Part shown: positions 18,896 through 35,111 of the stretch, piece after piece | Layout: each line of letters begins with the position of its first letter | Numbering within the stretch: position 1 is the first letter of the stretch | Source: an uncultured Roseburia sp. | GTDB taxonomy: Bacteria > Bacillota > Clostridia > Lachnospirales > Lachnospiraceae | Length of the DNA stretch: 35,482 nt | Assembly: GCA_964515325.1 (NCBI GenBank) | Contig: CAZESO010000001.1 | Span: 1-35,482, forward strand | Direction: 5' to 3' | Made by a program: the position numbers and the translations under genes | The notes under the pieces: generated by a model | What the model was told of the DNA's origin: nothing | Database searches by the model: none | What the model saw: the letters and a program-made list of their open reading frames with translations, nothing else

Positions 18896-19708
18896 TTATT
18901 TCAACCTACAACTATCAAATATAAACAAATCAAATTTATCCTTAGATTCTTCATATTGTTCCTGACTTCTGATTGTCCATGCAACTCTTAAAGCACCAAG
19001 CTTTCCACATAACCGTCTTGAGATATTATTGGCATCAAAATGTTTATATGCAATAAAGTCAGGTCTTGTTGCAACATTTGTCAGCAAGTATGTAAGGAAA
19101 ACATAAAGAAGTTTTCCTTTATACTTTTTGTCCTTTCCAAAGTTCATAGAAAGCTGACCTCGAACAACATCCGGACGATTTTTTCTATACCACATAAGTG
19201 CTAATGGATGGAATGACTCTATGCAGTATGGACCATTGTAATTTTTTAAAAGTTCATTAGCAAGTTTACACACTTCATTACTTGGAACGTCCAGCTTATA
19301 TTCTATAATAATAGGAACATTTCCACCTATAACCTCTAATGCTTCTGCAAAGGTTGGAATGGTTTCGTGAGAATTTAAAAGCTTAAAACTCTTAAGCTCA
19401 GCCAAAGTGTAATCCCAAACATTTCCATCAAAGCCGCACATTCTTTTTAAGGTTGCATCATGGAATACCACAGGAACTTTGTCTTTGCTAAGTTGTACAT
19501 CTAATTCTATTCCGTACCCATTTTCTACGGCATTTCTAAAAGCTGTAAGAGAATTCTCAGGAGCTTCAGAAGTATTATCAAAGAGTCCGCGATGAGCATA
19601 TAAATGCTTCATCAGATGAGCTCTGGAAGGTTTATTTACAGTTCTTGGAAATATTAGAAAAATATACAACATGAAAAGGATAATTATTGTTAAAAAAATA
19701 TATATCAT
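18896..19708 (-). CDS. glycerophosphodiester phosphodiesterase family protein with an N-terminal membrane anchor
   Basis: AHRG..ENSLTAFRNAVENGYGIELDVQLSKDKVPVVFHD is the GDPD catalytic signature. N-terminal helix IYIFLTIIILFMLYIFLIF. Confidence 0.85.
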   Translation of the reverse strand: MIYIFLTIIILFMLYIFLIFPRTVNKPSRAHLMKHLYAHRGLFDNTSEAPENSLTAFRNAVENGYGIELDVQLSKDKVPVVFHDATLKRMCGFDGNVWDYTLAELKSFKLLNSHETIPTFAEALEVIGGNVPIIIEYKLDVPSNEVCKLANELLKNYNGPYCIESFHPLALMWYRKNRPDVVRGQLSMNFGKDKKYKGKLLYVFLTYLLTNVATRPDFIAYKHFDANNISRRLCGKLGALRVAWTIRSQEQYEESKDKFDLFIFDSCRLK

Positions 19709-22120: not shown

Positions 22121-22903
22121 ATGAAAAATTATTTAAACAGTGTAAATGCAGGCTATTTTTACCTTATAGTGGCATTGGTATTGGCATTTGTTGTGGCAAT
22201 GTGTGTAATATTTCTGGTAAAGAGCTACAAAGCGGGGATAAAGCTTGGAATGGACAAAAAGGTCCTTAAAAAGACAATAATGTCCAGTGCCACATTTACA
22301 CTATTGCCATCGATTAGTATATTGTTGGGAGTTATTGCTTTGAGCGGAACCTTGGGAGTACCTTTTTCATGGCTTAGATTATCGGTAGTAGGTTCTTTAC
22401 AATATGAGCTTAATGTGGCAGAAATAGCTGCCCAAAGCTTAGGACTTGAGGGATTGAAAGTGTCTGAGCTCAGTACAGAAGCATTTGTGACGATTGCATT
22501 GGTTATGACTATTGGTATTTTGGGAGGCGTATGCTGTTGTATATTCTTTCTTAAAAAATATATGACAAAGCTTAACAGTAAGCCGAAGAAAGAAAAAGAT
22601 AAAAAAGACGCTGAAGATGAGTCGGCAAAAAATGCAAAAAAAACTGGTTTTGGTGCATATGCAACTACAGCTATGTTTGTCGGTTTATGTGCGGCGTATA
22701 TTGGTTCATATATAGGTAAAGCTGTTCCGAGGGAAGGGTCAGATATAATGCCATTAATAGTGGCTATTATTGCAGCTATATGTATGGGAGTGTTCGAGTA
22801 TTTTATTCAAAAGAAGAATATGAAGACTCTTGAAAATTTCAGTCTTGCGGCAAGTATGCTGATAGCTATGGCAGCAGCTGTGATTATTCAGTTGGTTATG
22901 TAA
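22121..22903 (+). CDS. uncharacterised polytopic membrane protein with a K/E/D-rich loop
   Basis: 260 aa with GGAGG RBS. Multiple hydrophobic helices and a charged loop KPKKEKDKKDAEDESAKNAKK. I recognise no catalytic motif. Confidence 0.6.
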   Translation: MKNYLNSVNAGYFYLIVALVLAFVVAMCVIFLVKSYKAGIKLGMDKKVLKKTIMSSATFTLLPSISILLGVIALSGTLGVPFSWLRLSVVGSLQYELNVAEIAAQSLGLEGLKVSELSTEAFVTIALVMTIGILGGVCCCIFFLKKYMTKLNSKPKKEKDKKDAEDESAKNAKKTGFGAYATTAMFVGLCAAYIGSYIGKAVPREGSDIMPLIVAIIAAICMGVFEYFIQKKNMKTLENFSLAASMLIAMAAAVIIQLVM

Positions 22904-22918
22904 GGAGGTGGAGCTGTT

Positions 22919-23605
22919 ATGAAGAATAATATTAATGAGAAAGACAAGTTTTTTGAAGAATTTAGTAATAGTCTCCATAGATTGGGAAGAATTATGTTGA
23001 TTCTTGCAATTATATTGTTGACGGCAGTGCCATTTGTATTTGGCGCAGTTAATGGGGTTTCTGTTGATTTGAAAGGATTTTTGAGTGGTTTTGCAAAGGT
23101 TGGAATTATATATATTCCAGTGGCGATAGTAGAATTTCTTGTATATGCACCAATGCTTGGTATTGGTGGAAGTTATCTTTCGTTTTTGACAGGTAATGTA
23201 ACCAATATGAAGATTCCTTGTGTTATGAATTCTAAAGACATTGCAGGAACAGAAAGTGGTACGGTTGAGCATGAGATTATTTCAACCATAAGTGTTGCAA
23301 CTAGTGCTATTGTAACTACACTTGTAGTTGTAGTGGGTGTTATTTTATTAGTTCCACTTCAACCGGTGTTGAACAGTGAAGTTTTAGCTCCTGCATTTGC
23401 AAATGTAGTACCGGCTTTATTTGGAGCACTGGGATTAAAATATTTTGCAAAGAGTCTTAAAATAACAGTAATTCCGTTGGTTTTGATGACTTTGTTGTGT
23501 GTGTTTGTACCATCAATGATAAGTCAAACAAGTATACTGCTGTTGCCCAGTGGAGGATTAGCGTTGGTTATAGCTTTGGTGTTGTATAAGAAGAATAAGT
23601 TATAA
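22919..23605 (+). CDS. uncharacterised polytopic membrane protein
   Basis: 228 aa with AAGGAGG RBS, starting 15 nt after the previous gene. Multiple hydrophobic helices. Confidence 0.6.
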   Translation: MKNNINEKDKFFEEFSNSLHRLGRIMLILAIILLTAVPFVFGAVNGVSVDLKGFLSGFAKVGIIYIPVAIVEFLVYAPMLGIGGSYLSFLTGNVTNMKIPCVMNSKDIAGTESGTVEHEIISTISVATSAIVTTLVVVVGVILLVPLQPVLNSEVLAPAFANVVPALFGALGLKYFAKSLKITVIPLVLMTLLCVFVPSMISQTSILLLPSGGLALVIALVLYKKNKL

Positions 23606-23618
23606 AAGGAAACAAAGG

Positions 23619-25058
23619 ATGAAGATATTTTTAGTTATTTTTGTGGTAGTTATTATACTTGCTACAATATTAGTTTTAAGAGCCTTAATGCTGAAACCAA
23701 CAAGTGCAGCCAATGCCAGCATCAAGCCTGACACATCTGACAGAGCCATGAAGTATGGGAAAAATCTTTCGAGGATGGTACAAAAGGAAACTGTGTCATC
23801 CAGATTTGATGATGATAGGACTAAGTTTTATGAATTTCATAAGCTGTTGGAGGAGTTGTATCCAAATGTTCATAGAGTTTGTGAGAAAAATGTTTTTGAT
23901 GGCAGCTTGTTGTTTAAATGGACTGGAAGTGGTGAGGCAAAACCAATTATGTTTATGAGTCATCATGATGTTGTTGAGGCAAATGGCCAATGGGAACATG
24001 AGCCGTTTAGTGGAGATATAGATAAAGATGGAATTGTGTGGGGCAGAGGAACAGTAGATACAAAGGCTAGTTTGAGTTGTATGCTTCAAGCCGTTGAAGA
24101 ACTTATAGAAAGTGGCTTTAAACCAAAGTGTGATGTTTATATAGGAAGCAGTTGTACGGAGGAATGGAGTGGTCCGGGGGCTCCTGCAACAGCTAAGTTT
24201 CTTGAAAGTAATGGTGTAAAACTGGAATTGTTATTAGATGAAGGTGGAATGATAATCGAGGAGCCAATAAAGGGCGTAAAGGGAATTTATGCCATGGTCG
24301 GTGTTGTGGAGAAGGGGTATGGCGATCTAAAATTCATCGCAAGAGGAAGTGGCGGACATGCAAGTGCACCTAAGAAAAACACACCGCTTGTAAGACTTGG
24401 TAAATTTATGGCAGATGTTGATGGTAAAAGTCCATTTAGGGCACGGATGACACCCACAATATGTGAGATGTTTAAACGTTTTGCTCCAAATATGAACTTT
24501 GGAATAAAAATAATATTTGCAAATATGTGGTTATTTAAACCTTTACTTGAAAGAATTTTACCTGACATAAATTCTCTTTCCGGAGCAATGGTTAGAACTT
24601 CAATAGCGTTTACTAAAGCATCAGGCTCAGAAGGTCTTAATGTTTTGCCGCAGGAAGCTTTTGTTACTGCAAATATGAGATTTATACATCATCAGTCCAA
24701 TAAAGAAAGTATAGAAGTTATTAGTAAATTAGCCCGAAAATATGATATAGAAACAGAAATAATATATCAGGCTGAGCCATGTCCTATAGTTGATTATACA
24801 AGTGATGCTTTTGCGGTTATTGAAAAGGTGACAAATGAAGTGTATCCGGGAGTGGGCGTTAGTCCTTACATAATGACAGGTGGAACTGATTCGAAATGTT
24901 ATAAAGATGTATGTGATAATTGTATTAGATTCGCACCATTGTACATAACAGGACAACAACATAACAGCATTCATGGTTTGAATGAAAATATTAATCAGGG
25001 AATGTTACCAATGGCGGTAGATTTTTATAAGAAAGTTGTTGAAAGCTATAGCGAATAA
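23619..25058 (+). CDS. M20/M25/M40-family metallopeptidase/amidohydrolase with an N-terminal membrane anchor
   Basis: FMSHHDVV, GRGTVDTKAS and LLLDEGG are M20 metal-ligand motifs. N-terminal helix IFLVIFVVVIILATILVL. Confidence 0.85.
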   Translation: MKIFLVIFVVVIILATILVLRALMLKPTSAANASIKPDTSDRAMKYGKNLSRMVQKETVSSRFDDDRTKFYEFHKLLEELYPNVHRVCEKNVFDGSLLFKWTGSGEAKPIMFMSHHDVVEANGQWEHEPFSGDIDKDGIVWGRGTVDTKASLSCMLQAVEELIESGFKPKCDVYIGSSCTEEWSGPGAPATAKFLESNGVKLELLLDEGGMIIEEPIKGVKGIYAMVGVVEKGYGDLKFIARGSGGHASAPKKNTPLVRLGKFMADVDGKSPFRARMTPTICEMFKRFAPNMNFGIKIIFANMWLFKPLLERILPDINSLSGAMVRTSIAFTKASGSEGLNVLPQEAFVTANMRFIHHQSNKESIEVISKLARKYDIETEIIYQAEPCPIVDYTSDAFAVIEKVTNEVYPGVGVSPYIMTGGTDSKCYKDVCDNCIRFAPLYITGQQHNSIHGLNENINQGMLPMAVDFYKKVVESYSE

Positions 25059-25105: not shown

Positions 25106-25828
25106 TTAATTTAATACTAAATGGCAGGAAAACTTTTTGTTTCCATTGTCACAAATTCCTTTTGCAAGGATTTCTTTTTCTTTTCGCTCAGTATGTATAT
25201 TTAATTCTGTGCCGGATACAACCTCTTGAATATAATCAACCTGAAATGTTTTAATGCTTTCATTTTCGGAAAGGTTAATGGCATTAAATACATAGTTGGC
25301 ATATTTGGTATTATTTACATGACCATTTATGTCACAATCGCAAAAAGTAGTTTTGACAGTATAAGGTTCTGAATTCAATTCAAAATCTTGAATCTTTTTT
25401 ATCTTTCCCTCAAATGATTTTTCAGTTATGAACCCTTCTTTTATTGGGAAAATATCAGCAACAGTCACTAATTTACGAGTAATGCTGTTTATTACAACCC
25501 ATTCGGAACTGCCTTTAACAAGGATTTCGCCATTCATATCTGTTATAAGATATTCTCTTGTACAAACAATTCTATCGGGTTGCAGAGGCCATGTTTTTAC
25601 ATGTACTGTTTGGTATGTTGAGGGCTGTTTATATATCTCAAATTTAACTTTGGAAAGAACCCAGAGGGTTTCGTTAGCGCTCATTGCATTGAAGCCTATA
25701 CCTAAATCTGTTGCATGACTTGCAGCTATATCTTGAAATATATCAAGAACTGAAGATGCAAGAAGCCTTCCATAACGGTCAAAATCTGAAATTCTCAAAT
25801 AATAGTCTTTTTCAAGTAATACATCCAT
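25106..25828 (-). CDS. acyl-[acyl-carrier-protein] thioesterase (FatA/B-like double hotdog)
   Basis: 240 aa. DFDRYGRL..., a second hotdog with DINGHVNNTKYANYV. AGGAG RBS upstream. Confidence 0.82.
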   Translation of the reverse strand: MDVLLEKDYYLRISDFDRYGRLLASSVLDIFQDIAASHATDLGIGFNAMSANETLWVLSKVKFEIYKQPSTYQTVHVKTWPLQPDRIVCTREYLITDMNGEILVKGSSEWVVINSITRKLVTVADIFPIKEGFITEKSFEGKIKKIQDFELNSEPYTVKTTFCDCDINGHVNNTKYANYVFNAINLSENESIKTFQVDYIQEVVSGTELNIHTERKEKEILAKGICDNGNKKFSCHLVLN

Positions 25829-26084: not shown

Positions 26085-27596
26085 ATGGCTATTAAGATTA
26101 TTATGTTAGTCGTATTTTTTAGCGTTATGATTGGTGTTGGCTTATATTGTAGAAAGCACGCAACTGACGTTAATGGGTTTGTTTTGGGAGGTAGAAATGT
26201 AGGACCATGGCTTACAGCATTTGCGTATGGTACTTCATATTTTTCGGCGGTTATATTTGTAGGTTATGCAGGACAGTTTGGGTGGAAGTTCGGCGTAGCT
26301 TCAACTTGGGTTGGTATAGGTAATGCTATTATTGGTTCGTTACTTGCATGGTTAATTCTTGGTAAAAGAACAAGAACTATGACACAGCATTTACAGAGCA
26401 AGACAATGCCTGAGTTTTTTGGACAGAGATTTGATTCAAATATGCTTAAAGTAGTGGCATCAATTATTGTATTCATATTCTTGATTCCATACACAGCATC
26501 TTTATATAATGGTCTTTCAAGACTTTTTGAAATGGCGTTTAATATTGATTATTCAGTATTTATCGTAATTATGGCGGTACTTACGGGTGTGTATGTTATT
26601 GCAGGTGGTTATATGGCTACTGCCATTAATGACTTTATTCAGGGTATCATTATGATTGTTGGTATTGTGGCAGTTATTGTGGCAGTACTTAATTCACATG
26701 GTGGTTTAGGCGAAGCAATGGATAAGCTTGCATTGGTTGAGGATACAGCTGCAAATGCTCAAGCAGGAGATTTTGCATCGCTTTTTGGTCCCGACCCGCT
26801 TGGATTATTAGGTGTAGTTATTCTTACATCTCTTGGTACATGGGGATTGCCACAGATGGTTCAGAAATTCTATGCTATTAAGGATGAGAAATCTATTACA
26901 AAAGGAACGGTTATTTCTACAATATTTGCATTAATTGTTGCAGGTGGTTGTTATTTCCTTGGTGGTTTCGGCAGATTATATGATGTGGATGTGGCTAAGG
27001 TAGGATATGATGCAGTTGTTCCTACAATGCTTGAAAGCCTTCCGGAACTGCTTATTGCAATAGTTCTTGTACTTGTGCTTTCAGCTTCAATGTCAACATT
27101 ATCATCATTGGTACTTGCATCAAGCTCAACACTTACACTTGATCTTATTAAGGACAATATTGTTAAGAAGATGGATGAGAAGAAGCAGGTATTTATAATG
27201 AGAGTTTTCATTGTAATATTTATTGTAATATCAGCAGTTATTGCTGTATTCCAGTATAATACTAAGGTTGCATTTATTGCGCAGCTTATGGGTATTTCAT
27301 GGGGTGCTTTGGCAGGCGCATTCCTTGCACCATTTATCTACAGCTTATACTGGAAAGGTGTAACAAAATTGTCAGTAATAGTGAATTTTATTGTAGGATG
27401 TGTTATAATGGTCGTTAATATGATAGACACTTTGATGACAAATGTTAATATTTTCCCTACAATGTTACAGTCTCCAATTAACTGTGGTGCGTTTACAATG
27501 ATTTTGGGACTTGTACTTGTTCCTGTTATCAGCCTTGTAACACCAAAGCTTAGTAAGGAAAAGACGGACGAAGTATTTAAGTGTTACGAAAAATAA
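26085..27596 (+). CDS. sodium:solute symporter (SSS) family transporter
   Basis: 503 aa with about 13 hydrophobic segments. LGGRNVGPWLTAFAYGTSYFSAVIFVGYAG is an SSS-type N-terminus. AAGGAG RBS upstream. Confidence 0.85.
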   Translation: MAIKIIMLVVFFSVMIGVGLYCRKHATDVNGFVLGGRNVGPWLTAFAYGTSYFSAVIFVGYAGQFGWKFGVASTWVGIGNAIIGSLLAWLILGKRTRTMTQHLQSKTMPEFFGQRFDSNMLKVVASIIVFIFLIPYTASLYNGLSRLFEMAFNIDYSVFIVIMAVLTGVYVIAGGYMATAINDFIQGIIMIVGIVAVIVAVLNSHGGLGEAMDKLALVEDTAANAQAGDFASLFGPDPLGLLGVVILTSLGTWGLPQMVQKFYAIKDEKSITKGTVISTIFALIVAGGCYFLGGFGRLYDVDVAKVGYDAVVPTMLESLPELLIAIVLVLVLSASMSTLSSLVLASSSTLTLDLIKDNIVKKMDEKKQVFIMRVFIVIFIVISAVIAVFQYNTKVAFIAQLMGISWGALAGAFLAPFIYSLYWKGVTKLSVIVNFIVGCVIMVVNMIDTLMTNVNIFPTMLQSPINCGAFTMILGLVLVPVISLVTPKLSKEKTDEVFKCYEK

Positions 27597-27645
27597 TATA
27601 ATGGACGGTGGGTGATTTTGTTCGCTTATCGGAACGGAGGAAGAA

Positions 27646-29280
27646 ATGCCTATTACTGAGTTTTTAGAGCGTAATGCCAGAGAATACGGGGATGATGTAT
27701 GTCTCGTGGAAATCAATCCTGATATTCAGGAAAAGAGAAGAATAACATGGCGTGATTATGAACTTATCGAGTCTAATCCATACTGCGATTACCGTAGAGA
27801 GATAACATGGCATGTTTTTGATGAGAAGGCAAACAGATTTGCGAATTTACTTATTTCAAGAGGTATTAAGAAGGGTGATAAGGTTGGTATTCTTCTTATG
27901 AACTGTCTTGAATGGTTACCAATATATTTTGGTATTTTGAAGACTGGTGCTTTAGCAGTGCCACTTAATTTTAGATATGATTCAGAGGAAATCAGATATT
28001 GTCTTAATCTTGCTGATGTGGATGTTCTTGTATTTGGTCCTGAATTTATCGGAAGAATTGAAAAAATCGCAGATGACATTGAGAAGAACAGACTTGTGTT
28101 TTTTGTTGGTGGTAATTGTCCTTCATTTGCAGAGGACTATGACAGACTCACAGCAAATTGTTCGAGCAAGAAACCTGACATAACTATTGAAGATGAGGAT
28201 GATGCAGCTATTTATTTCTCGTCTGGTACAACAGGTTTCCCTAAAGCTATTTTACATAATCATGAATCATTGATGCATTCGGCAGCAGTTGAGCAGAAGC
28301 ATCATGGTCAGACAAAGGACGATGTATTTTTATGCATTCCTCCTTTATATCATACAGGTGCTAAGATGCACTGGTTTGGTAGTTTGATTTCAGGTGGTAA
28401 GGCAGTACTTTTAAAGGGTGTTACACCTAAGTCGGTATTTGATACAGTTTCTAATGAAAAATGTTCAATAGTATGGCTTTTAGTACCTTGGGCTCAGGAT
28501 ATTTTGCTTGCCATCGAAAAGGGCGATATAAATATCAATGATTATGAGACATCTCAATGGAGACTTATGCATATTGGTGCACAGCCTGTACCACAGAGTC
28601 TTATAAAGAAGTGGAAGGAAATTTTCCCTAACCATGAATATGATACAAACTATGGTCTTAGTGAGTCTATCGGACCAGGTTGTGTACATCTTGGTGTGGA
28701 AAATATACATAAAGTTGGCGCAATCGGTGTTCCGGGCTACGGCTGGGAGGTTAAGATTGTTGATGAAAATAACAACAAGGTAGCACAGGGCGATGTAGGT
28801 GAGCTTGCAGTTAAAGGCCCGGGTGTAATGACATGTTATTACAAGGACGAAAAAGCAACAAACGAAGTATTGAAAGATGGCTGGTTACATACAGGTGATA
28901 TGGCTATGCAGGATGAAGATGGATTTATCTTCCTTGTTGACAGAAAGAAGGATGTCATCATCAGTGGTGGTGAAAATCTCTACCCTGTACAGATTGAAAA
29001 TTACTTAAGCAAGTTTGAGAAGATTAAGGATGTTGCCGTAATCGGTATCAAGGATGTGCGACTTGGTGAAATAGCCACAGCCATCATCGAGCTTAAACCG
29101 GGTATGACATCTACAGAAGAAGAAATCAATGAATTCTGTAAGGAGCTTCCAAGATATAAGCGACCAAGAAAGATAATCTTCGCAGATATCCCACGAAATC
29201 CTACAGGAAAAATCGAGAAACCAAAGCTTCGTAAGATGTACAACAGCGAGAATCTCGTTGCAGAACAAAATAACGCGTAA
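27646..29280 (+). CDS. AMP-dependent acyl-CoA synthetase/ligase (ANL superfamily)
   Basis: IYFSSGTTGFPKA, NYGLSE, HTGDMA..DGFIFLVDRKKD, PRNPTGKI. GGAGG RBS upstream. Confidence 0.9.
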   Translation: MPITEFLERNAREYGDDVCLVEINPDIQEKRRITWRDYELIESNPYCDYRREITWHVFDEKANRFANLLISRGIKKGDKVGILLMNCLEWLPIYFGILKTGALAVPLNFRYDSEEIRYCLNLADVDVLVFGPEFIGRIEKIADDIEKNRLVFFVGGNCPSFAEDYDRLTANCSSKKPDITIEDEDDAAIYFSSGTTGFPKAILHNHESLMHSAAVEQKHHGQTKDDVFLCIPPLYHTGAKMHWFGSLISGGKAVLLKGVTPKSVFDTVSNEKCSIVWLLVPWAQDILLAIEKGDININDYETSQWRLMHIGAQPVPQSLIKKWKEIFPNHEYDTNYGLSESIGPGCVHLGVENIHKVGAIGVPGYGWEVKIVDENNNKVAQGDVGELAVKGPGVMTCYYKDEKATNEVLKDGWLHTGDMAMQDEDGFIFLVDRKKDVIISGGENLYPVQIENYLSKFEKIKDVAVIGIKDVRLGEIATAIIELKPGMTSTEEEINEFCKELPRYKRPRKIIFADIPRNPTGKIEKPKLRKMYNSENLVAEQNNA

Positions 29281-29294
29281 ATATTGAGTAGGGC

Positions 29295-29364
29295 AAAAAT
29301 GGACATGTTTCACTCACAAAAAATAAGTTTACTTATTTTTTGTGAGTGGAATATGTCCATTTTT
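29295..29364. terminator. very long (about 34 bp) hairpin flanked by A4/T4, probable bidirectional terminator
   Basis: aaaa + atggacatgtttcactcacaaaaaataagt (29299-29328), tt, acttattttttgtgagtggaatatgtccat (29331-29360) + tttt. Two mismatches in the 30-bp arms. Begins 15 nt after the ligase stop. Confidence 0.55.
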
Positions 29365-29761
29365 ATGCGACGAAAGTCGCGTAGCGAAAGGCTGTAAAGC
29401 CTTGAGCTAACGCCCTACGGAGTAGTGTTAAGTGAGAGTGCTTGCATATTTTCTCTATAGTAGAGATTTATGCGCTTTAGGGAAAATATAATGAAAAAAA
29501 ATAACAAAAAATAGGGTTATTTTCCCTAGTATCATTTAAAATTGCCCAAAGATACTCAAATTATGATTTTCTTGTATCTTTTTGGGTATTTAACTTAATG
29601 GAGGGAAAAAATAGGATGTTTTCAGCCAAAATCACAATGAAATTTTCTCTATAAGCCAATTGAATTCATATGGGGAAAATGGCATTAATGAAGCGAAGGG
29701 GTGTAGAAAATATTTTCAAGGAGACGCCCCAAAAATTTGTGCGTTGATAATTTAATAAGGC

Positions 29762-29824: not shown

Positions 29825-30003
29825 ATGAGCGACATCATGACAGATAAGGAACTTATTGCAGTAACAATTGACAGATATACAGATTTGCAAAGAATAAAAA
29901 AGCAAATGGAGATTGTATAAACACAGAACTTGAATATCAATTAAAAGTAACAATAGCAAAATTATCATCTTTGGGAGTGTCTGTTGAAGATATCACATTA
30001 TAA
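29825..30003 (+). pseudogene. small ORF split by a frameshift at an A6 run (31 codons, then 34 codons in the +2 frame)
   Basis: GAGGAAGG RBS, then ATG 29825: MSDIMTDKELIAVTIDRYTDLQRIKKQMEIV* (stop 29918-29920). One extra A in the run 29896-29901 would give a continuous 59-aa ORF ending ...NTELEYQLKVTIAKLSSLGVSVEDITL* (stop 30001-30003). Confidence 0.3.
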
Positions 30004-30028: not shown

Positions 30029-30072
30029 AAGGTGTAAGGTCTTATTAAATTATTAGACTTTACACCTTTTAT
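30029..30072 (+). terminator. rho-independent terminator
   Basis: aaggtgtaaggtct (30029-30042) / agactttacacctt (30055-30068), a 14-bp stem with one G-U pair, followed by a T run. Confidence 0.6.
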
Positions 30073-30129
30073 ATATAATTCCATTAATTATATCTTTGTG
30101 TTATAATACTTCTGTTGTGAGGTGAAGTT

Positions 30130-30717
30130 ATGAAAAAGAATTCATATTTATACAAAGTATTAAGACCAATATTTACATTTATATTTAAAATATATTATAA
30201 TCCGACAATTATAAACAGGGAGTATGTTCCAAAAGATGGGGCGGCAGTAATTGCCGGCAATCATAAGCATGCATTGGATCCGATTTTGGTGGATGTTTGC
30301 ACAAAAAGGGTTGTACATACATTAGCGAAAAAGGAATTGCATGATGGAGCTTTTGGTTGGTTTTTTAGAGCGATTGGGACTATACCTGTGGACTTGCATG
30401 CAAAACGTAATAAGGAAGCACTTGAATCGGCCATACAATGCTTAAATGATGGTGCATTGATAAATGTGTCACCGGAGGCGAAGAGAAATTACACAAACGA
30501 AATATTATTGCCTTTCAAGTTTGGAGCAGTTGTTATGGCTCAGAGAACTGATAGCAAAATTACTCCTTATTCAATAACAGGAGATTATAAGTTTAGAAGT
30601 AAGAATTTAAAGATTACATTTGGTGAGCCGTTGGATGTATCTAAGTTGACGGCAGAAGAAGCAAATGAACTGTTGTTTGAAAAGGTAAAGAAATTAATAC
30701 TGGAAGCTAAAAAATAG
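30130..30717 (+). CDS. PlsC/LPLAT-family (1-acyl-sn-glycerol-3-phosphate-type) acyltransferase
   Basis: NHKHALD (HX4D, 30259-30279), AKKEL, and a degenerate third motif SPEAKR. GAGGTG RBS. Extended -10 TGTTATAAT at 30099-30107. Confidence 0.82.
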   Translation: MKKNSYLYKVLRPIFTFIFKIYYNPTIINREYVPKDGAAVIAGNHKHALDPILVDVCTKRVVHTLAKKELHDGAFGWFFRAIGTIPVDLHAKRNKEALESAIQCLNDGALINVSPEAKRNYTNEILLPFKFGAVVMAQRTDSKITPYSITGDYKFRSKNLKITFGEPLDVSKLTAEEANELLFEKVKKLILEAKK

Positions 30718-30725
30718 GGGGTACC

Positions 30726-32393
30726 ATGGAAAAAGTACATTTGAATTATCCTGACATTTCTGTTTATGAAATGCTTAGGGAATCAATGAAAAAACATACA
30801 GATTATATTAGTTATAATTATTTTGGGACAAAAAGAACATATAAACAATTTGTTAGGGAAGTAGATGAATGTGCGAAGGCATTTTTGACATTAGGTGTAA
30901 AGCATAAGGACAGAGTCAGTATTTGCATGCCAAATACGCCTGAGGCAATAATCGCATTTTATGCTCTTAATAAAATTGGAGCAGTTGCTAATATGATACA
31001 TCCGCTATCGGCTGAGCAGGAGATAAAATATTATTTAAATGTTTCAAAAAGTCATTATGTTGTAGCTATTGACATTGCGTTCAACAAGATAAATCATATT
31101 GCTAAAGAAACTTCACTAAAGAAATGCATAATAGTTTCGGCAAAAAATTCAATGCCATTATATATGCAAATAGGTTATCAGCTGACAAAGGGAAGAAAAG
31201 TCAAATTAGAAGAAAGTGACCTTAAATTATATTGGAAGGACTTTATAAAATTAAGTAAGAATTACAATGAAAATGTAGAGAGTGGTTTTAAAGGAAATGA
31301 AGTTGCGGCGATTCTTTATAGTGGCGGAACAACAGGCTATCCAAAGGGAATAGAGTTGACAAACTTGAATTTTAATGCATTGGCAATGCAGAGCTTTGAG
31401 GCTTGTGGATGCTTGGAAGCAAAGGATAAAGTATTAGCGATAATGCCTGTATTTCATGGATTTGGTCTGGGAATTTGTATACATACGGTACAGTATTTTG
31501 GCGGAACAAGCGTGATGCTGCCACAGTTCAGTGCTAAGACTTTTGATAAATTGTTGAAGAAATACAAGCCTAATATTATTGCAGGGGTTCCGACCTTGTA
31601 TGAGGCATTACTGCGAAATAAGAATTTGGACGGATATGATTTATCATTTTTGAAATGTGTCATTTCCGGGGGCGATTCGCTTTCTGTCAGCTTGAAGAAG
31701 AAGGTGGATAGTTTCTTGAAGGAGCATGGAGCGAACATACAGATAAGAGAAGGCTATGGGCTTACAGAGTGTGTAACAGGAAGCTGCCTGACTCCAATGA
31801 ATTATTATAAGGAAGGCAGTATAGGAGTTCCTTATCCTGATACATATTATAAAATTGTAAAGCCTGATACCGAAGAAGAATTGCCATGTGGACAAGATGG
31901 TGAAATATTAATAAGTGGTCCGTCTGTTATGAAGGGATATTTAGAGGCAGAGGAGGAAACCAAAAAAACTCTTCGTAAGCACAAAGATGGACGAGTGTGG
32001 ATGTATACAGGTGATATGGGCTGTATGGATGAAGAAGGATTCATTTATTTTAAGCAGAGGATTAAAAGAATGATTATCAGTGCCGGTTATTGCCTTTATC
32101 CTCAGTATATTGAAAATATTATTGATTCTCATCCAAAGGTGTTGATGTCATGCGCCATAGGTATAGACCATCCGTACAAAATACAGGTTGTAAAGGCGTT
32201 TGTGGTATTAAGAGAAGGTATTCAACCAGATGATGAAATATTAAAGGAAATCAAGGAATATTGTGAGAAAAATCTGGCACAGTATTCTTGGCCTTATGAA
32301 TACGAATTTAGAAAAGAACTACCGAAAACTTTAGTAGGAAAAGTAGCATATTCGAAACTTGAGGAGGAAGAAAAAAGTAAAAATGAAAAGTGA
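30726..32393 (+). CDS. acyl-adenylating enzyme (ANL superfamily; fatty-acid--CoA/AMP ligase-like)
   Basis: ILYSGGTTGYPKG, GYGLTE, YTGDMG..EGFIYFKQRIKRMI, LPKTLVGKV. AGGGGG RBS. Starts 8 nt after the acyltransferase gene. Confidence 0.9.
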   Translation: MEKVHLNYPDISVYEMLRESMKKHTDYISYNYFGTKRTYKQFVREVDECAKAFLTLGVKHKDRVSICMPNTPEAIIAFYALNKIGAVANMIHPLSAEQEIKYYLNVSKSHYVVAIDIAFNKINHIAKETSLKKCIIVSAKNSMPLYMQIGYQLTKGRKVKLEESDLKLYWKDFIKLSKNYNENVESGFKGNEVAAILYSGGTTGYPKGIELTNLNFNALAMQSFEACGCLEAKDKVLAIMPVFHGFGLGICIHTVQYFGGTSVMLPQFSAKTFDKLLKKYKPNIIAGVPTLYEALLRNKNLDGYDLSFLKCVISGGDSLSVSLKKKVDSFLKEHGANIQIREGYGLTECVTGSCLTPMNYYKEGSIGVPYPDTYYKIVKPDTEEELPCGQDGEILISGPSVMKGYLEAEEETKKTLRKHKDGRVWMYTGDMGCMDEEGFIYFKQRIKRMIISAGYCLYPQYIENIIDSHPKVLMSCAIGIDHPYKIQVVKAFVVLREGIQPDDEILKEIKEYCEKNLAQYSWPYEYEFRKELPKTLVGKVAYSKLEEEEKSKNEK

Positions 32394-33762
32394 TAATTTA
32401 ACAGTTCTTCTCATTCATCCTGAAATATCCAGAACAAAGTATAACTTTGTGGGAGTAATTGAAAATGAATGTTTGGAGCTGGAGTATATATCAACTGTAT
32501 TAAAAGAAAAGGGACATACAGTATATTTATATGATGGACAGGTAGAAAAGGGAACAGTTTCCGGGTGTATTGTAAAGTATAAACCTGATATTGTATATGT
32601 GTGTGGAAGAACCAGACAGGAAAATTTTATGCTGGAATATTGCAGTGAAGCCAAAAAACAGAATAAGGATACTATAACAATAATAGGCGGATTGCATGCA
32701 CAACTGTGTTATGAAAGAATGTATAAGGCAGATGTGGATTATATTTTAACGACCTTTGATGTCTACAAATTATTAGATATTATTGAATATAATTTTGGAA
32801 ATCAAGATATTGATTTAAAGGAAGTTGAAGGCATTTGCTACAAGGAAAATAATCAATGGATTGCTAATAAAGCAATAGCATTTGACATAAACAGATTGCC
32901 TTTGCCGGACAGGTCGTACTTCTACGAGCATCCGAAGAATTATAGATATTTAGAGCTTGAACATTCAGCCTGGGTCAGAACAGCTTATTCATGTCCGTAT
33001 CGTTGTAGCTTTTGTCATAGGAATAGAATGAATCAGGGCGAATATGTATGCAGAGACATAAAAGATGTGGTTGAAGAAATAGAAAATATACAGTCTGAGA
33101 ATATTTATATAGTTGATGATGATTTTCTGTTTAACAATGACAGACTTAATGAGTTTATCAGATTGATAAGAGAAAAAAATATCAATAAAAAATACATTTG
33201 CTATGGCAGGTCTGATTTCATTGCAGCAAATGAAAAACTGATGAAAGAGTTGCAAAGCATTGGATTGTATTATGTATTAGTGGGATTGGAAGCCATAAAT
33301 GATAATCATTTAAAGGATTATAATAAAAAATCTAATATTGATAATAATATAAAAAGTATTGAAATATGTAACAAGCTGGGCATCAATATTATGGGAATGT
33401 TTATTATTGATTTGGATTATACATCTAAAGATTTTAAGGATTTGTATAAATGGATTAAGAATCATAAATTAAAGCATGTAGCAGTTTCTATATTTACACC
33501 TGAGATGGGAATGGAAACTTTTGATACATACAAAGACAGGCTTATTACGGATAATCCTTCACATTGGGATTATTTACATTTAGTGGCGAAGCCTGGTAAA
33601 ATGAGTGTAAAAAGATATTATTTCAATTACTATAAGCTGTTAATTAAATTGTTCTTGAAAGCTCAGAGGGAAGGCGTGTATGATTTCATTGATTATGGTT
33701 ATTACATTAAATCTTTCATAAGTAATATTTTTAAGGGCAAAAGGAGTAATGATGAACAATAA
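32383..33762 (+). CDS. B12-binding-domain (class B type) radical SAM enzyme
   Basis: CPYRCSFC = CX3CX2C (32992-33015), preceded by a ~200-aa Rossmann-like N-domain (VLLIHPE...DIVYVCGRT...IIGGLHA). I prefer ATG 32383 to the track's TTG 32359. Overlaps the upstream stop by 11 nt. Confidence 0.88.
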   Translation: MKSDNLTVLLIHPEISRTKYNFVGVIENECLELEYISTVLKEKGHTVYLYDGQVEKGTVSGCIVKYKPDIVYVCGRTRQENFMLEYCSEAKKQNKDTITIIGGLHAQLCYERMYKADVDYILTTFDVYKLLDIIEYNFGNQDIDLKEVEGICYKENNQWIANKAIAFDINRLPLPDRSYFYEHPKNYRYLELEHSAWVRTAYSCPYRCSFCHRNRMNQGEYVCRDIKDVVEEIENIQSENIYIVDDDFLFNNDRLNEFIRLIREKNINKKYICYGRSDFIAANEKLMKELQSIGLYYVLVGLEAINDNHLKDYNKKSNIDNNIKSIEICNKLGINIMGMFIIDLDYTSKDFKDLYKWIKNHKLKHVAVSIFTPEMGMETFDTYKDRLITDNPSHWDYLHLVAKPGKMSVKRYYFNYYKLLIKLFLKAQREGVYDFIDYGYYIKSFISNIFKGKRSNDEQ

Positions 33763-34447
33763 AAAAGAAGATACAAATGAAGTGAAAAAAATAATTCCAA
33801 GTAAATTAGAAACAGGCTTTCAACAATTATTGTACAAGACTATTGGAAAATATATACCTGAAAATATGACACCTAATCAGATAACATTAATAGGTGCCAT
33901 AGGTGGCTTCATTGGAATTATATGTGCATTTCTGTCAAAGATAAATTCATTATTTTTGCTCGGAACCATTCTTGGAATGTTGTGTCATTTAATATGTGAT
34001 GATTTGGATGGTTATGTTGCCAGAATCAGAAATATGACATCTAAGGCAGGTGGGTATTTTGATTTGCTGACAGACATATTGCATATCACATATTTGATAA
34101 TAGCTTTGGCATTTGCAGGCTATGTCAGCTTTGAAATTTCAATATTTTTAGTTCCGGTATATGCATTAATAATATTTACATCCATGAATTATATTTTATA
34201 TTTAAAAGAATTTCTATTTCCGAGATTGGGCCCCATTGAAACCCATTTGTTTTTTATGGTACTTTGTATAGGAAGTATGGTTTGCGGAAATTCAGCTCTG
34301 TGTGTGGTAGCAGGATTTGGATTGAAATTTGCGGATATAGTATTATTGGTTGGCGGAATACCAATGTATTATGAAATGATAAGATTGCAGATACAGTTGT
34401 TTAGAAGGTTAAAAGAGCAGGATAAAAAGGAAAAAGAAAATGAATAA
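33749..34447 (+). CDS. CDP-alcohol phosphatidyltransferase family membrane protein
   Basis: Complete signature DGYVAR-x8-G-x3-D-x3-D (34007-34075). About 6 hydrophobic helices. 14-nt overlap with the radical SAM gene. Confidence 0.9.
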   Translation: MMNNKKEDTNEVKKIIPSKLETGFQQLLYKTIGKYIPENMTPNQITLIGAIGGFIGIICAFLSKINSLFLLGTILGMLCHLICDDLDGYVARIRNMTSKAGGYFDLLTDILHITYLIIALAFAGYVSFEISIFLVPVYALIIFTSMNYILYLKEFLFPRLGPIETHLFFMVLCIGSMVCGNSALCVVAGFGLKFADIVLLVGGIPMYYEMIRLQIQLFRRLKEQDKKEKENE

Positions 34448-35057
34448 TGAGTACATATATATTGTTTTGGTAAAAGCATTAACGGGACTGGGACAGTTTA
34501 GCAGAATTATAAGTAAATATGAGTATTCACATATAGCAGTTTGTCTTGATGAAAATTTAAATGACTTCGTTACTTTTTCAAGAAGAAAGCATTATTCGCC
34601 TTTTAATGCAGGGTTCATGCATGAAAAGAGGGAGCATTATGCATTTGGTGAAAATGAGAAGGTAAAGGTGAAGGTGTTCAAAGTGCCTGTTAGCACAGAG
34701 AACAAAATAAAAATCATAAAGTACATAGAAAAAATTGAAAATGATAAAGAATATGTTTTCAATTTATATTCAATGCTTACAATGCCTTTTATCCATGGCT
34801 TTGAAATATACAAAGCCCATAACTGTATGTCTTTTGTTGGAAAGATAATAGAACTAAGCAAGTCGGTGGAAATGGACAAACCATATTACAAATATAATAT
34901 TCCTGAAATGGATGAATTGCTTGAAGACTACAAGTATAAGGAAGGCTATTTGAAAAAGAAGCAGGAAGATTATGAGTATATGCAAAAAGATGATATGGTT
35001 AGTAATGTGAAAATGTTTGTGGGATTGAATGGTGAATTAATAAAGAGAATGCTGTAA
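34440..35057 (+). CDS. hypothetical protein; possible permuted NlpC/P60 (YiiX/LRAT-like) Cys-His acyl-/amido-transferase
   Basis: The ORF itself is solid: 8-nt overlap with the upstream gene, then a terminator. The family call rests only on His31 in YSHIAV (34530-34532) followed by Cys129 in HNCMSFV (34824-34826). This His-before-Cys order and NC-x-x-F context resemble LRAT/YiiX-type enzymes. Confidence 0.45.
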   Translation: MNNEYIYIVLVKALTGLGQFSRIISKYEYSHIAVCLDENLNDFVTFSRRKHYSPFNAGFMHEKREHYAFGENEKVKVKVFKVPVSTENKIKIIKYIEKIENDKEYVFNLYSMLTMPFIHGFEIYKAHNCMSFVGKIIELSKSVEMDKPYYKYNIPEMDELLEDYKYKEGYLKKKQEDYEYMQKDDMVSNVKMFVGLNGELIKRML

Positions 35058-35071
35058 TGGCATTCTTTTTT
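35045..35071 (+). terminator. rho-independent terminator of the five-gene operon
   Basis: agaatgc (35045-35051) / gcattct (35059-35065) followed by TTTTTT. The stop codon lies in the loop. Confidence 0.7.
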
Positions 35072-35111
35072 GTTGTATTTTCAAAAATACAATACTGACA
35101 AAACAACTGTC

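Follow-up and report, generated by a model that had tools for sequence, protein, structure and literature searches.

What does a bacterium make with an acyltransferase, an acyl-activating enzyme, a cobalamin-binding radical S-adenosylmethionine (SAM) enzyme, a CDP-alcohol phosphotransferase and a cysteine-histidine enzyme, when all five are encoded in one string of nearly contiguous genes? This question is raised by positions 30130-35057 of a 35-kb stretch of DNA from an uncultured Roseburia species (the whole stretch is referred to as the window), where the open reading frames (ORFs) of a six-frame list define the cassette O1-O5. The answer favoured here, with a probability of about 0.4, is that O1-O5 is a self-contained module for assembling a specialised membrane lipid, whose head group would be derived from a CMP-activated small phosph(on)o-alcohol and would undergo radical chemistry. 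Since every partner is a lipid enzyme, this kind of product is the most economical one to assume.

The five genes form one insulated, translationally coupled operon on the plus strand and encode five intact enzymes. O1 (30130-30717) specifies a PlsC/LPLAT-family acyltransferase of 195 aa with the HX4D motif NHKHALD, O2 (30726-32393) an ANL (FadD-like) acyl-activating enzyme of 555 aa, O3 (32383-33762) a cobalamin-binding (class B-type) radical SAM enzyme of 459 aa, O4 (33749-34447) a membrane enzyme of the CDP-alcohol phosphotransferase family of 232 aa, and O5 (34440-35057) a protein without a Pfam model, predicted to adopt a permuted papain-like fold (YaeF/YiiX C92, LRAT-like). A gap of 8 nt separates O1 from O2, and overlaps of 11, 14 and 8 nt join O2 to O3, O3 to O4 and O4 to O5; the ORF list confirms this arrangement, which a first-pass annotation of the window had described. 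The mechanically longest frame of O3 begins with a TTG at 32359, and the start has been set at the ATG at 32383 because homologues align from there. All catalytic signatures named in that annotation are found in the translations of the five ORFs, and its proposal of a single insulated cassette of intact enzymes is supported.

Hairpins that had been placed on either side of the operon are also borne out by folding. The upstream hairpin with its U-run (30029-30072, plus strand; stem of 14+2 bp), computed on 30029-30068, has a folding energy (dG) of -19.4 kcal/mol and a z-score of -5.2, with equally stable folds in 0 of 200 shuffles. It separates the operon from the non-coding stretch 3' of the upstream ANL gene, and it was missed by the terminator scan only because the loop limit of the scan is 8 nt. 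The downstream element (35042-35070, plus strand), an intrinsic terminator-like hairpin followed by a T-run, overlaps the stop codon of O5, is matched by the terminator scan and, folded on 35038-35075, has a dG of -13 kcal/mol (z -4.7). O1 is preceded by a ribosome-binding site, GAGGTG (30119-30124, plus strand), read in the sequence 5 nt before the ATG. The promoter proposed at 30099-30107 (plus strand) is present as sequence, an extended -10-like element, TGtTATAAT, although it is a consensus match only and its -35 region is weak. A search against Rfam gave no match in the window and two tRNAs only in eight related loci, and therefore provides no riboswitch clue.

The cassette is by no means restricted to the genome in which it was noticed. 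A scan of 185,579 species, with one genome per species, by two O3 peptide patterns that reach fairly close relatives only, gave 122 O3 relatives among species-level genomes; the locus counts in the following cover the best 80 of these 122, analysed by tblastn and ORF clustering. All 80 loci belong to Clostridia, namely Lachnospiraceae, Oscillospiraceae and [Eubacterium] saphenum, and the host genera include Butyrivibrio, Agathobacter, Acetatifactor and Anaerosporobacter in the Lachnospiraceae; Ruminococcus albus and R. flavefaciens are also among the hosts. The full collinear order O1-O2-O3-O4-O5 is present in 63 of the 80 loci, and the lack of co-occurrence elsewhere, which had been named as fatal to a joint pathway, is thus not what is found. 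Among the incomplete loci, eight lack only the ANL gene, one lacks O4, six end at or near a contig end and two have the radical SAM gene alone. At L029 (8001-9353) and L038 (8001-9374), an O3 orthologue of 65-68% identity occurs with the other four cassette genes absent within 8 kb. Cassette borders are sharp, and the flanks are variable apart from a set of accessory genes. Between the window and its closest relative, L001 (JAGBHK01; ~90% identity), dN/dS is 0.035-0.083 for all five genes. The genes are thus under strong purifying selection and therefore still functional in the lineage of the window. Moreover, hundreds of matching protein clusters were found in metagenomes by the O3 and O5 searches.

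The accessory genes, which lie outside the window, provide the strongest clue to the function. Neighbour clustering identified recurrent same-strand genes directly 3' of the cassette in related loci, including a phosphoenolpyruvate (PEP) mutase (PepM; TIGR02320, 364.7 bits, over the cut-off of 319.55), a phosphonopyruvate decarboxylase (Ppd; TIGR03297, 420.6 bits, over the cut-off of 312.5) and an NTP transferase fused to an iron alcohol dehydrogenase (Fe-ADH), in place of which other genomes have a stand-alone NTP transferase. In four genomes, a major facilitator superfamily (MFS) transporter of the organophosphate:phosphate antiporter (OPA) family precedes the NTP transferase. The NTP transferase is found in 48 of the 80 loci and, in 28 of these, it is accompanied by PepM and Ppd, mostly together with an Fe-ADH. 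When only the fully flanked loci are considered (at least 4 kb on both sides; 48 of the 80), some part of the module is present in 33: the full set in 19, the NTP transferase only in nine, the transporter with the NTP transferase in two, the NTP-transferase-ADH fusion without PEP mutase in two, and Ppd with ADH in one. Fom1-like fusions of a cytidylyltransferase with PepM occur at L033, L036, L065, L075, L080 and L089, and, among solved structures, the NTP transferase is nearest to LicC (CTP:phosphocholine cytidylyltransferase), to the phosphonate cytidylyltransferase PntC (6pd1) and to IPCT.

Judged by these family assignments, the accessory genes are predicted to specify a route from PEP through phosphonopyruvate and phosphonoacetaldehyde to 2-hydroxyethylphosphonate (HEP) and CMP-HEP. 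In Streptomyces, Fom1, Fom2 and FomC make HEP-CMP by exactly this series of steps, and the class B radical SAM enzyme Fom3 methylates its C2 (PMC8158854). The HEP route is a minority branch of phosphonate metabolism, accounting for 8.5% of PEP-mutase neighbourhoods compared with 56% for 2-aminoethylphosphonate (AEP) (PMC8942020), so that chance is an improbable explanation for the repeated pairing of HEP genes with a B12-radical SAM enzyme. The first-pass annotation had placed its emphasis on the acyl chains. The neighbours, with NTP transferases in 48 and PepM in 28 of the 80 loci, point at least as strongly to head-group (phosphonate) chemistry and a Fom3-like role of the B12-radical SAM enzyme; the annotation's overall logic of activation, acylation, head-group installation and radical modification stays the best frame. 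At L066 (10754-12490) and L073 (10679-12430), a cytidylyltransferase-Fe-ADH fusion lies 3' of the cassette with neither a PEP mutase nor a decarboxylase nearby; this arrangement would fit salvage of phosphonoacetaldehyde, for instance from AEP breakdown, rather than de novo synthesis.

The properties of O4 are in line with a soluble activated donor. It belongs to the CDP-alcohol phosphotransferase family (CDP-OH_P_transf, PF01066, 46.3 bits against a cut-off of 22) and has the full D-x2-DG-x2-AR-x8-G-x3-D-x3-D motif (DDLDGYVAR-x8-G-x3-D-x3-D), and it reaches the cut-off of no head-group synthase equivalog among the NCBIfam models (AIPS, PIPS, PgsA, PssA, ClsA, DIPPS). Its best score is with archaetidylinositol-phosphate synthase (AIPS), 54.4 against 180 bits; PgsA gives 28.7 against 109 and PssA 25.4 against 107. 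Its nearest solved relatives, AF2299 and IPCT-DIPPS and next cholinephosphotransferase 1, all take a soluble CDP-alcohol, and the CDP-diacylglycerol users PgsA and PIPS rank lower. In addition, O4 and the downstream NTP transferase both match the model of the bifunctional IPCT/DIPPS (NF041135). Together, these relationships weakly favour transfer from a CMP-phosphonate to a lipid alcohol.

O3 has the domain composition of a class B-type radical SAM enzyme, with a B12-binding domain (PF02310, 49 bits against 32.1) and a Radical_SAM domain (PF04055, 66.1 against 29.5) recognised by Pfam. Its iron-sulfur motif, CPYRCSFC (C204-x3-C208-x2-C211), has three cysteines that are invariant in 18 homologues. 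No NCBIfam cut-off is reached: the best models are the hopanoid C-3 methylase HpnR (TIGR04367; 153.4 against 650 bits) and BchE (125 against 481), and sequences in the PDB gave weak matches only (OxsB, AprD4 and CysS). With these HpnR and AIPS scores, O3 and O4 both lie outside characterised families, as the first-pass annotation had expected. A full-database search returned 272 cluster representatives that match O3 at E<=1e-30. In the ten clusters of near relatives that were looked up, named members come from Formimonas, Lachnospiraceae and Fibrobacteria, and no name from Thermotoga, Thermoanaerobacter or Dictyoglomus was encountered. Any resemblance to Fom3 (UniProt Q56184) is one of genomic context, genes for cytidylyl-HEP accompanying O3 homologues at 28 of the 80 loci, a context that is absent in the window.

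The first two genes resemble a lipid-acylating pair. O1 scores 80.8 bits with the acyltransferase family PF01553 (Pfam cut-off 23) and has the HX4D motif, and it stays under the cut-off of the 1-acylglycerol-3-phosphate O-acyltransferase model TIGR00530 (80.5 against 102.95). With Aas (NF006386), its match covers the acyltransferase domain (E 9e-17), at 60.1 bits against a cut-off of 1221 for this equivalog. Enzymes of PF01553 such as OlsA acylate non-glycerol hydroxyls. O2 has both AMP-binding domains (PF00501, 270.8 bits; AMP-binding_C, 58.6 bits) and the motifs YSGGTTGYPKG, GYGLTE, YTGD and PKTLVGK; no equivalog or subfamily cut-off of NCBIfam is reached, the best model being a long-chain-fatty-acid-CoA ligase (369.5 against 766 bits). 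In their order, O1 then O2, the two proteins correspond to the domains of an Aas split in two. Whereas O1 is found in 76 of the 80 loci, O2 is missing from eight cassettes that are otherwise complete. All eight ANL-less cassettes have the cytidylyltransferase, an overlap that is not treated as significant because the loci are phylogenetically clustered.

O5 is the least familiar member. It belongs to no Pfam or NCBIfam family; none of 29 members of its own family matches PF05708, PF04970 or PF00877 at E<=10, and sequence and profile searches of the PDB sequences returned nothing. About 400 homologous protein clusters exist, all of them unnamed. An AlphaFold model built from 29 sequences (pLDDT 84.7, pTM 0.82) retrieves, by Foldseek against the PDB, the NlpC/P60 effector TseH (E 4e-3), the cysteine peptidase 3kw0 and YiiX. 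Against BFVD, nine matches were found at E<=1e-3 with TM-scores (on query) of 0.50-0.64, some of them under the name 'permuted papain-like amidase YaeF/YiiX C92'; at lower significance there are matches to the poxvirus OPG091 type (E 5.7e-3) and to a 'lecithin retinol acyltransferase' (rank 30, E 0.14). His31 and Cys129 (HNCMSF) are invariant in 20 divergent homologues, and in the model the fold is papain-like and the catalytic His comes before the Cys in the chain, as is characteristic of permuted NlpC/P60 enzymes. The earlier assignment of O5 to the NlpC/P60 clan therefore stands at the level of the fold, through TseH, 3kw0 and YiiX, and fails at the level of sequence profiles. The model indicates that O5 is a permuted papain-like Cys-His enzyme of the YiiX/LRAT type; a mode of action with an acyl-Cys intermediate would follow by analogy with LRAT and PLAAT.

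These observations can be assembled into a scheme. O4 would move a phosph(on)o-alcohol from a soluble, cytidylyl-activated donor to a lipid alcohol, most simply diacylglycerol, in the manner of Kennedy-type or DIPPS-type enzymes. The donor would be made, in most relatives, by the LicC/PntC-type cytidylyltransferase encoded directly downstream, and in about 40% of the relatives its precursor would be HEP, supplied by PEP mutase, phosphonopyruvate decarboxylase and Fe-ADH, so that the product would be a phosphonolipid. By analogy with Fom3, O3 would most likely carry out a cobalamin-dependent C-methylation at the head group, either on CMP-HEP or on the installed head. O2 and O1, acting as a split Aas, may activate a fatty acid and attach it as an ester to a free hydroxyl on either the lipid or the hydroxyalkyl head, and O5 may move or remove an acyl chain through an acyl-Cys intermediate in the LRAT/PLAAT manner.

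Variants of the cassette show its modular build. At L089, whose radical SAM enzyme (64% identical to O3) is of the same family, a PntC-PEP-mutase fusion, Ppd and an NTP transferase come after the full cassette. Other loci carry paralogous radical SAM clades. L081 and L082 (43%) combine a PssA-like CDP-OH transferase, a methyltransferase, an O5 homologue, an Rce1-like protein, PlsC, an ANL enzyme, the radical SAM enzyme and a HAD phosphatase; L085 (49%) has the radical SAM enzyme, an O5 homologue, a PssA-like transferase and a phosphatidylserine decarboxylase (Psd); and L086 (49%) has the radical SAM enzyme and an O5 homologue only. The O5 homologues that adjoin the radical SAM gene in L081, L085 and L086 are 36-37% identical to O5. 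L092 encodes a PlsC 58% identical to O1, an ANL enzyme 76% identical to O2 and a radical SAM enzyme 46% identical to O3, together with a GT4 glycosyltransferase closest to alpha-monoglucosyl-diacylglycerol synthase, and thus represents a glycolipid variant without O5. Because the ANL enzyme of L092 is 76% identical and its radical SAM enzyme only 46%, the acyl module appears to be portable, whereas different clades of radical SAM enzyme go with different head-group enzymes. Common to all cassette variants is the radical SAM enzyme; it is most closely partnered by O5 and/or the PlsC-ANL pair, and an enzyme that adds a head group to diacylglycerol or CDP-diacylglycerol always accompanies it.

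Two further observations were made on these loci. The variant cassette of L081 (913-10408) directly adjoins genes for TnpV, MobC and a relaxase, and because of these it appears to be carried on a mobilisable element. Distant relatives of O3 (30-42% identity) occur in tandem arrays of 3-5 B12-radical SAM paralogues, at L083 (3997-10681), L084 (4506-12641), L087 (5567-10649), L088 (7234-13291), L090 (5610-11031) and L091 (4341-9662); a class I methyltransferase is present in five of these six arrays and two unannotated genes of ~330-360 aa in four. The arrays look like an uncharacterised gene cluster for iterative alkylation.

Several points weigh against head-group chemistry on a phosphonate as the common theme. 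The best curated matches of O3 are HpnR and BchE rather than a phosphonate enzyme; 15 of the 48 fully flanked loci have no gene of the phosphonate module; and tblastn of the 35-kb window detected no PepM, Ppd, cytidylyltransferase or OPA transporter. The paralogous radical SAM clades (43-49%) accompany PssA/Psd or a glycolipid synthase in the absence of phosphonate genes, and they are also compatible with a radical SAM enzyme targeting some portion that all these lipids share. The array at L088 in addition carries an ANL enzyme and a carrier protein. Furthermore, what O4 uses as acceptor and in which order the steps occur are purely inferred, and no lipid product is known from organisms that carry the cassette.

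As to the window itself, a neighbour-joining tree of the radical SAM proteins nests it, together with L001, in a clade in which every other member has either the HEP set or the MFS transporter with the NTP transferase, and the HEP linkage is also found in basal clades of Oscillospiraceae. On account of this nesting and the basal occurrence, the linkage looks ancestral and appears to have been lost or relocated in the lineage of the window. The organism must then have the donor genes elsewhere in its genome, scavenge the donor, or use another CDP-alcohol.

Much of the same evidence can be read in terms of the lipid tail. In this rather unlikely account, the main rival, O3, with O5 and/or O1 and O2, modifies an acyl chain or the glycerol, for example by C-methylation of the chain or of the sn-3 carbinol carbon. 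The phosphonate would be one of several interchangeable heads, and each variant would have its own head-group transferase because diacylglycerol, once modified, calls for a transferase specific to it. That the radical SAM enzyme stays constant beside changing head-group enzymes (DIPPS-like with HEP genes, PssA-like with Psd, Mgs-like GT4) speaks for it, as do the position of the ANL gene directly 5' of the radical SAM gene and overlapping it, the clustering of distant O3 relatives with an ANL enzyme and a PP-binding carrier protein, the lipid methylase HpnR as the best curated match of O3, and the window and the 15 fully flanked loci that manage without adjacent donor genes. The same variants also cut the other way, since radical SAM clades only 43-49% identical switch with the head-group enzyme while the PlsC-ANL pair is exchanged between them; moreover, the ANL enzyme is dispensable, being absent from eight cassettes. 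An enzyme that modifies tails would need no head-group transferase of its own, and the combination of HEP-CMP with a B12-radical SAM enzyme, known from fosfomycin biosynthesis, is present in at least 28 species. The assembly of a lipid with a modified head group remains the preferred explanation.

Whether the acceptor is a membrane lipid at all can likewise be asked of the partners. Decoration of glycans or lipids is presumed for about half of all phosphonate clusters (PMC8942020), the O4 relatives AF2299 and DIPPS use soluble acceptors, and O5 has cell-wall amidases, TseH for instance, among its relatives by fold. The phosph(on)o-alcohol could accordingly be placed on a cell-wall polymer, a lipoteichoic-acid-type anchor or a soluble acceptor and be acylated there, yielding a surface decoration or a secreted acyl-phosphonate natural product. 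This is improbable: a glycosyltransferase, flippase, polymerase or LicD-type transferase is missing from the conserved set, its partners are a PlsC-family acyltransferase and a FadD-type ligase, and the sister variants carry membrane-lipid enzymes (PssA/Psd and a diacylglycerol glucosyltransferase-like protein).

A further proposal, raised as a speculation in the first-pass annotation, is that O3 couples two acyl chains tail to tail to give a membrane-spanning lipid of the diabolic-acid type. Such coupling requires radical chemistry, and Butyrivibrio, from which diabolic acids are known (PMC13159169), is among the hosts of the cassette. The enzyme has already been identified, however, as a different one, Mss, a synthase of membrane-spanning lipids (Sahonero-Canavesi et al.), which forms diacids when expressed alone in Escherichia coli; as homologues, its paper counts proteins with at least 30% identity and E<=1e-50 to Tmari_0825 or to the Mss of T. 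ethanolicus. Mss resembles O3 in being an anaerobic radical SAM enzyme that acts on lipids and is present in Butyrivibrio. It differs in acting alone, in its far wider phyletic range, with homologues reported in Thermotogales, Dictyoglomi and many other phyla compared with the exclusively clostridial best 80 cassette loci (found by patterns that reach fairly close relatives only), and in its description, as the Mss paper never mentions a cobalamin domain; it is by description that O3 is set apart from Mss. The conserved partners of O3 are head-group enzymes, and the cassette is also present in Ruminococcus albus and R. flavefaciens. The proposal is hence given hardly any credence.

A more specific and wider-ranging version of the head-group reading may also be formulated. 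Clostridia of gut and rumen would make a membrane lipid of a class not seen before, with a cobalamin-dependently C-methylated hydroxyalkylphosphonate head, for example a diacylglyceryl-2-hydroxypropylphosphonate, possibly O-acylated; and, more generally, the pair of B12-radical SAM enzyme and YiiX/LRAT-like enzyme would C-alkylate head groups or the glycerol backbone across the phosphono-, phosphatidylserine/phosphatidylethanolamine- and glycolipid variants. In this full form the statement is unlikely to be correct.

The remainder of the window has been surveyed for further parts of the system. Upstream of the operon, an SSF-family sodium:solute symporter gene is followed by a second ANL acyl-CoA-ligase-like gene (26085-29280), the latter with a best NCBIfam score of 421 bits against a cut-off of 476; the two may constitute an uptake-and-activation pair for a carboxylic acid. 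Of the relatives, L001, the closest, is alone in having this second ANL gene (95% identity) beside its cassette. Genes for two lipid-related enzymes, a glycerophosphodiester phosphodiesterase (18896-19708, minus strand) and an acyl-ACP (acyl carrier protein) thioesterase (25106-25828, minus strand), lie no more than 12 kb from the operon. As parts of the system, the phosphodiesterase, the thioesterase, the symporter and the second ANL enzyme were all rejected, being conserved neighbours only in L001. The gene 3' of O5 resembles by eye quinolinate synthase (nadA) and was judged unrelated to the cassette.

Directly 3' of the stop codon of the upstream ANL gene lies a perfect 32-bp inverted repeat (29296-29366; dG -43.3 kcal/mol, z -14), which far exceeds the usual length of a terminator and, because it is symmetric, may terminate transcription both ways. 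It is followed by ~760 nt of non-coding DNA without an Rfam match. In this non-coding stretch 5' of the operon, a small ORF (29825-29920) has a good ribosome-binding site (MSDIMTDKELIAVTIDRYTDLQRIKKQMEIV), and a second short reading frame (29920-30003) ends just 5' of the upstream hairpin. Farther away, a string at 22121-25058 encodes a DUF5058 protein, a 228-aa protein without a Pfam family and an M20 peptidase. The other genes of the window, which outside the operon is ordinary chromosome, encode Prs, DnaB/DnaI-like proteins, a Mur ligase, Mfd, Pth, a GGDEF-EAL protein and two glycogen-type (GlgC/GlgD-like) NTP transferases.

Regarding novelty, the earlier claim that no characterised pathway has this gene combination is supported: full-text literature searches revealed no paper describing the five genes together, none of the proteins reaches a curated equivalog cut-off, and the phosphonate inventories, which cover complete RefSeq genomes, make no mention of the cassette. 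Phosphonolipid clusters with a CDP-alcohol transferase have already been predicted; what is new here is the HEP branch, the presence of a B12-radical SAM enzyme and an unannotated papain-like protein among the core members, the portable acyl module and the occurrence in gut and rumen Clostridia. Clusters for phosphonolipids and phosphonoglycans are predicted to make up about half of the microbial capacity for phosphonates, with almost no known products (PMC8942020). Against this background, a compact and highly conserved cassette that is abundant in gut and rumen bacteria, and that joins fosfomycin-type HEP-CMP chemistry to phospholipid-type enzymes, is a good and experimentally tractable lead, not a demonstrated new pathway. 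Cultured carriers, including Anaerosporobacter mobilis, Butyrivibrio spp., Ruminococcus albus and R. flavefaciens, make it directly testable; Anaerosporobacter mobilis DSM 15930 and Butyrivibrio sp. LB2008 have the HEP genes in addition to the cassette, Ruminococcus albus 8 the cassette alone. Its study could reveal a new membrane lipid with a non-hydrolysable C-P head, with consequences for phosphorus economy, phage/host recognition and B12 dependence, add a further class of substrates to those of cobalamin radical SAM enzymes and assign a function to the unannotated papain-like family of O5.

Each part of the cassette has counterparts in known systems. The acyl module shares with Aas, the bifunctional 2-acyl-glycerophosphoethanolamine acyltransferase/acyl-ACP synthetase, the order of a PlsC-type followed by an ANL enzyme; in the cassette, however, these are two separate genes, the ANL gene is absent from eight cassettes and O1 falls far under the Aas cut-off. 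With HpnR, HpnP and other class B radical SAM methylases, O3 has in common an N-terminal B12-binding domain and a radical SAM core, while its HpnR score of 153 against a cut-off of 650 and the absence of a hopanoid context in the cassette genomes set it apart. O5 shares with YaeF/YiiX (peptidase C92), poxvirus G6R/OPG091 and LRAT/PLAAT the permuted papain-like fold in which His precedes Cys, and the xNCxxF around its invariant Cys resembles the NCEHF of LRAT; unlike the permuted NlpC/P60 enzymes, to which it has no sequence-profile similarity, it forms a family of its own whose members are invariably found together with a B12-radical SAM enzyme. The best match of O4 and of the NTP transferase is the archaeal IPCT/DIPPS (cytidylyltransferase plus CDP-inositol phosphotransferase; 4mnd, AF2299), with the shared logic that CTP activates a small phospho-alcohol which is then transferred to an alcohol. 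IPCT/DIPPS is bifunctional and uses inositol phosphate, whereas the cassette system has two genes, with scores of 35 and 49 bits against a cut-off of 580, and is proposed to use a phosphonate substrate and probably a lipid acceptor.

A biochemical parallel is the early fosfomycin pathway of Streptomyces (Fom1, Fom2, FomC and Fom3): its types of enzyme, namely a PEP mutase, a phosphonopyruvate decarboxylase, an Fe-ADH, a cytidylyltransferase (in some loci fused to the PEP mutase, as in Fom1) and a cobalamin radical SAM enzyme, are found in relatives of the window in a single gene string that includes the cassette. The window itself has no phosphonate genes, and the likeness of O3 to Fom3 rests on gene context in the relatives. 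The FomD hydrolase and the HppE epoxidase of the fosfomycin pathway have no counterpart in the cassette loci, where a CDP-alcohol phosphotransferase, an acyltransferase, an ANL enzyme and a Cys-His enzyme are found instead; the CMP-phosphonate would therefore serve as a donor and not be hydrolysed. A genomic parallel is offered by the predicted phosphonolipid clusters 'Burkholderiales_CDP-OH' (Group 1, Yu et al. 2013, summarised in PMC8942020), whose lipid product is uncharacterised. As in the relatives described here, a PEP mutase and a phosphonate cytidylyltransferase are combined with phospholipid-type genes including a CDP-alcohol transferase. These clusters make AEP or 1-hydroxy-AEP via a transaminase and have no radical SAM enzyme, in contrast to the HEP predicted here to arise via Fe-ADH; and in the clostridial cassettes, whose hosts are anaerobic, the B12-radical SAM enzyme and the YiiX/LRAT-like enzyme are among the core members.

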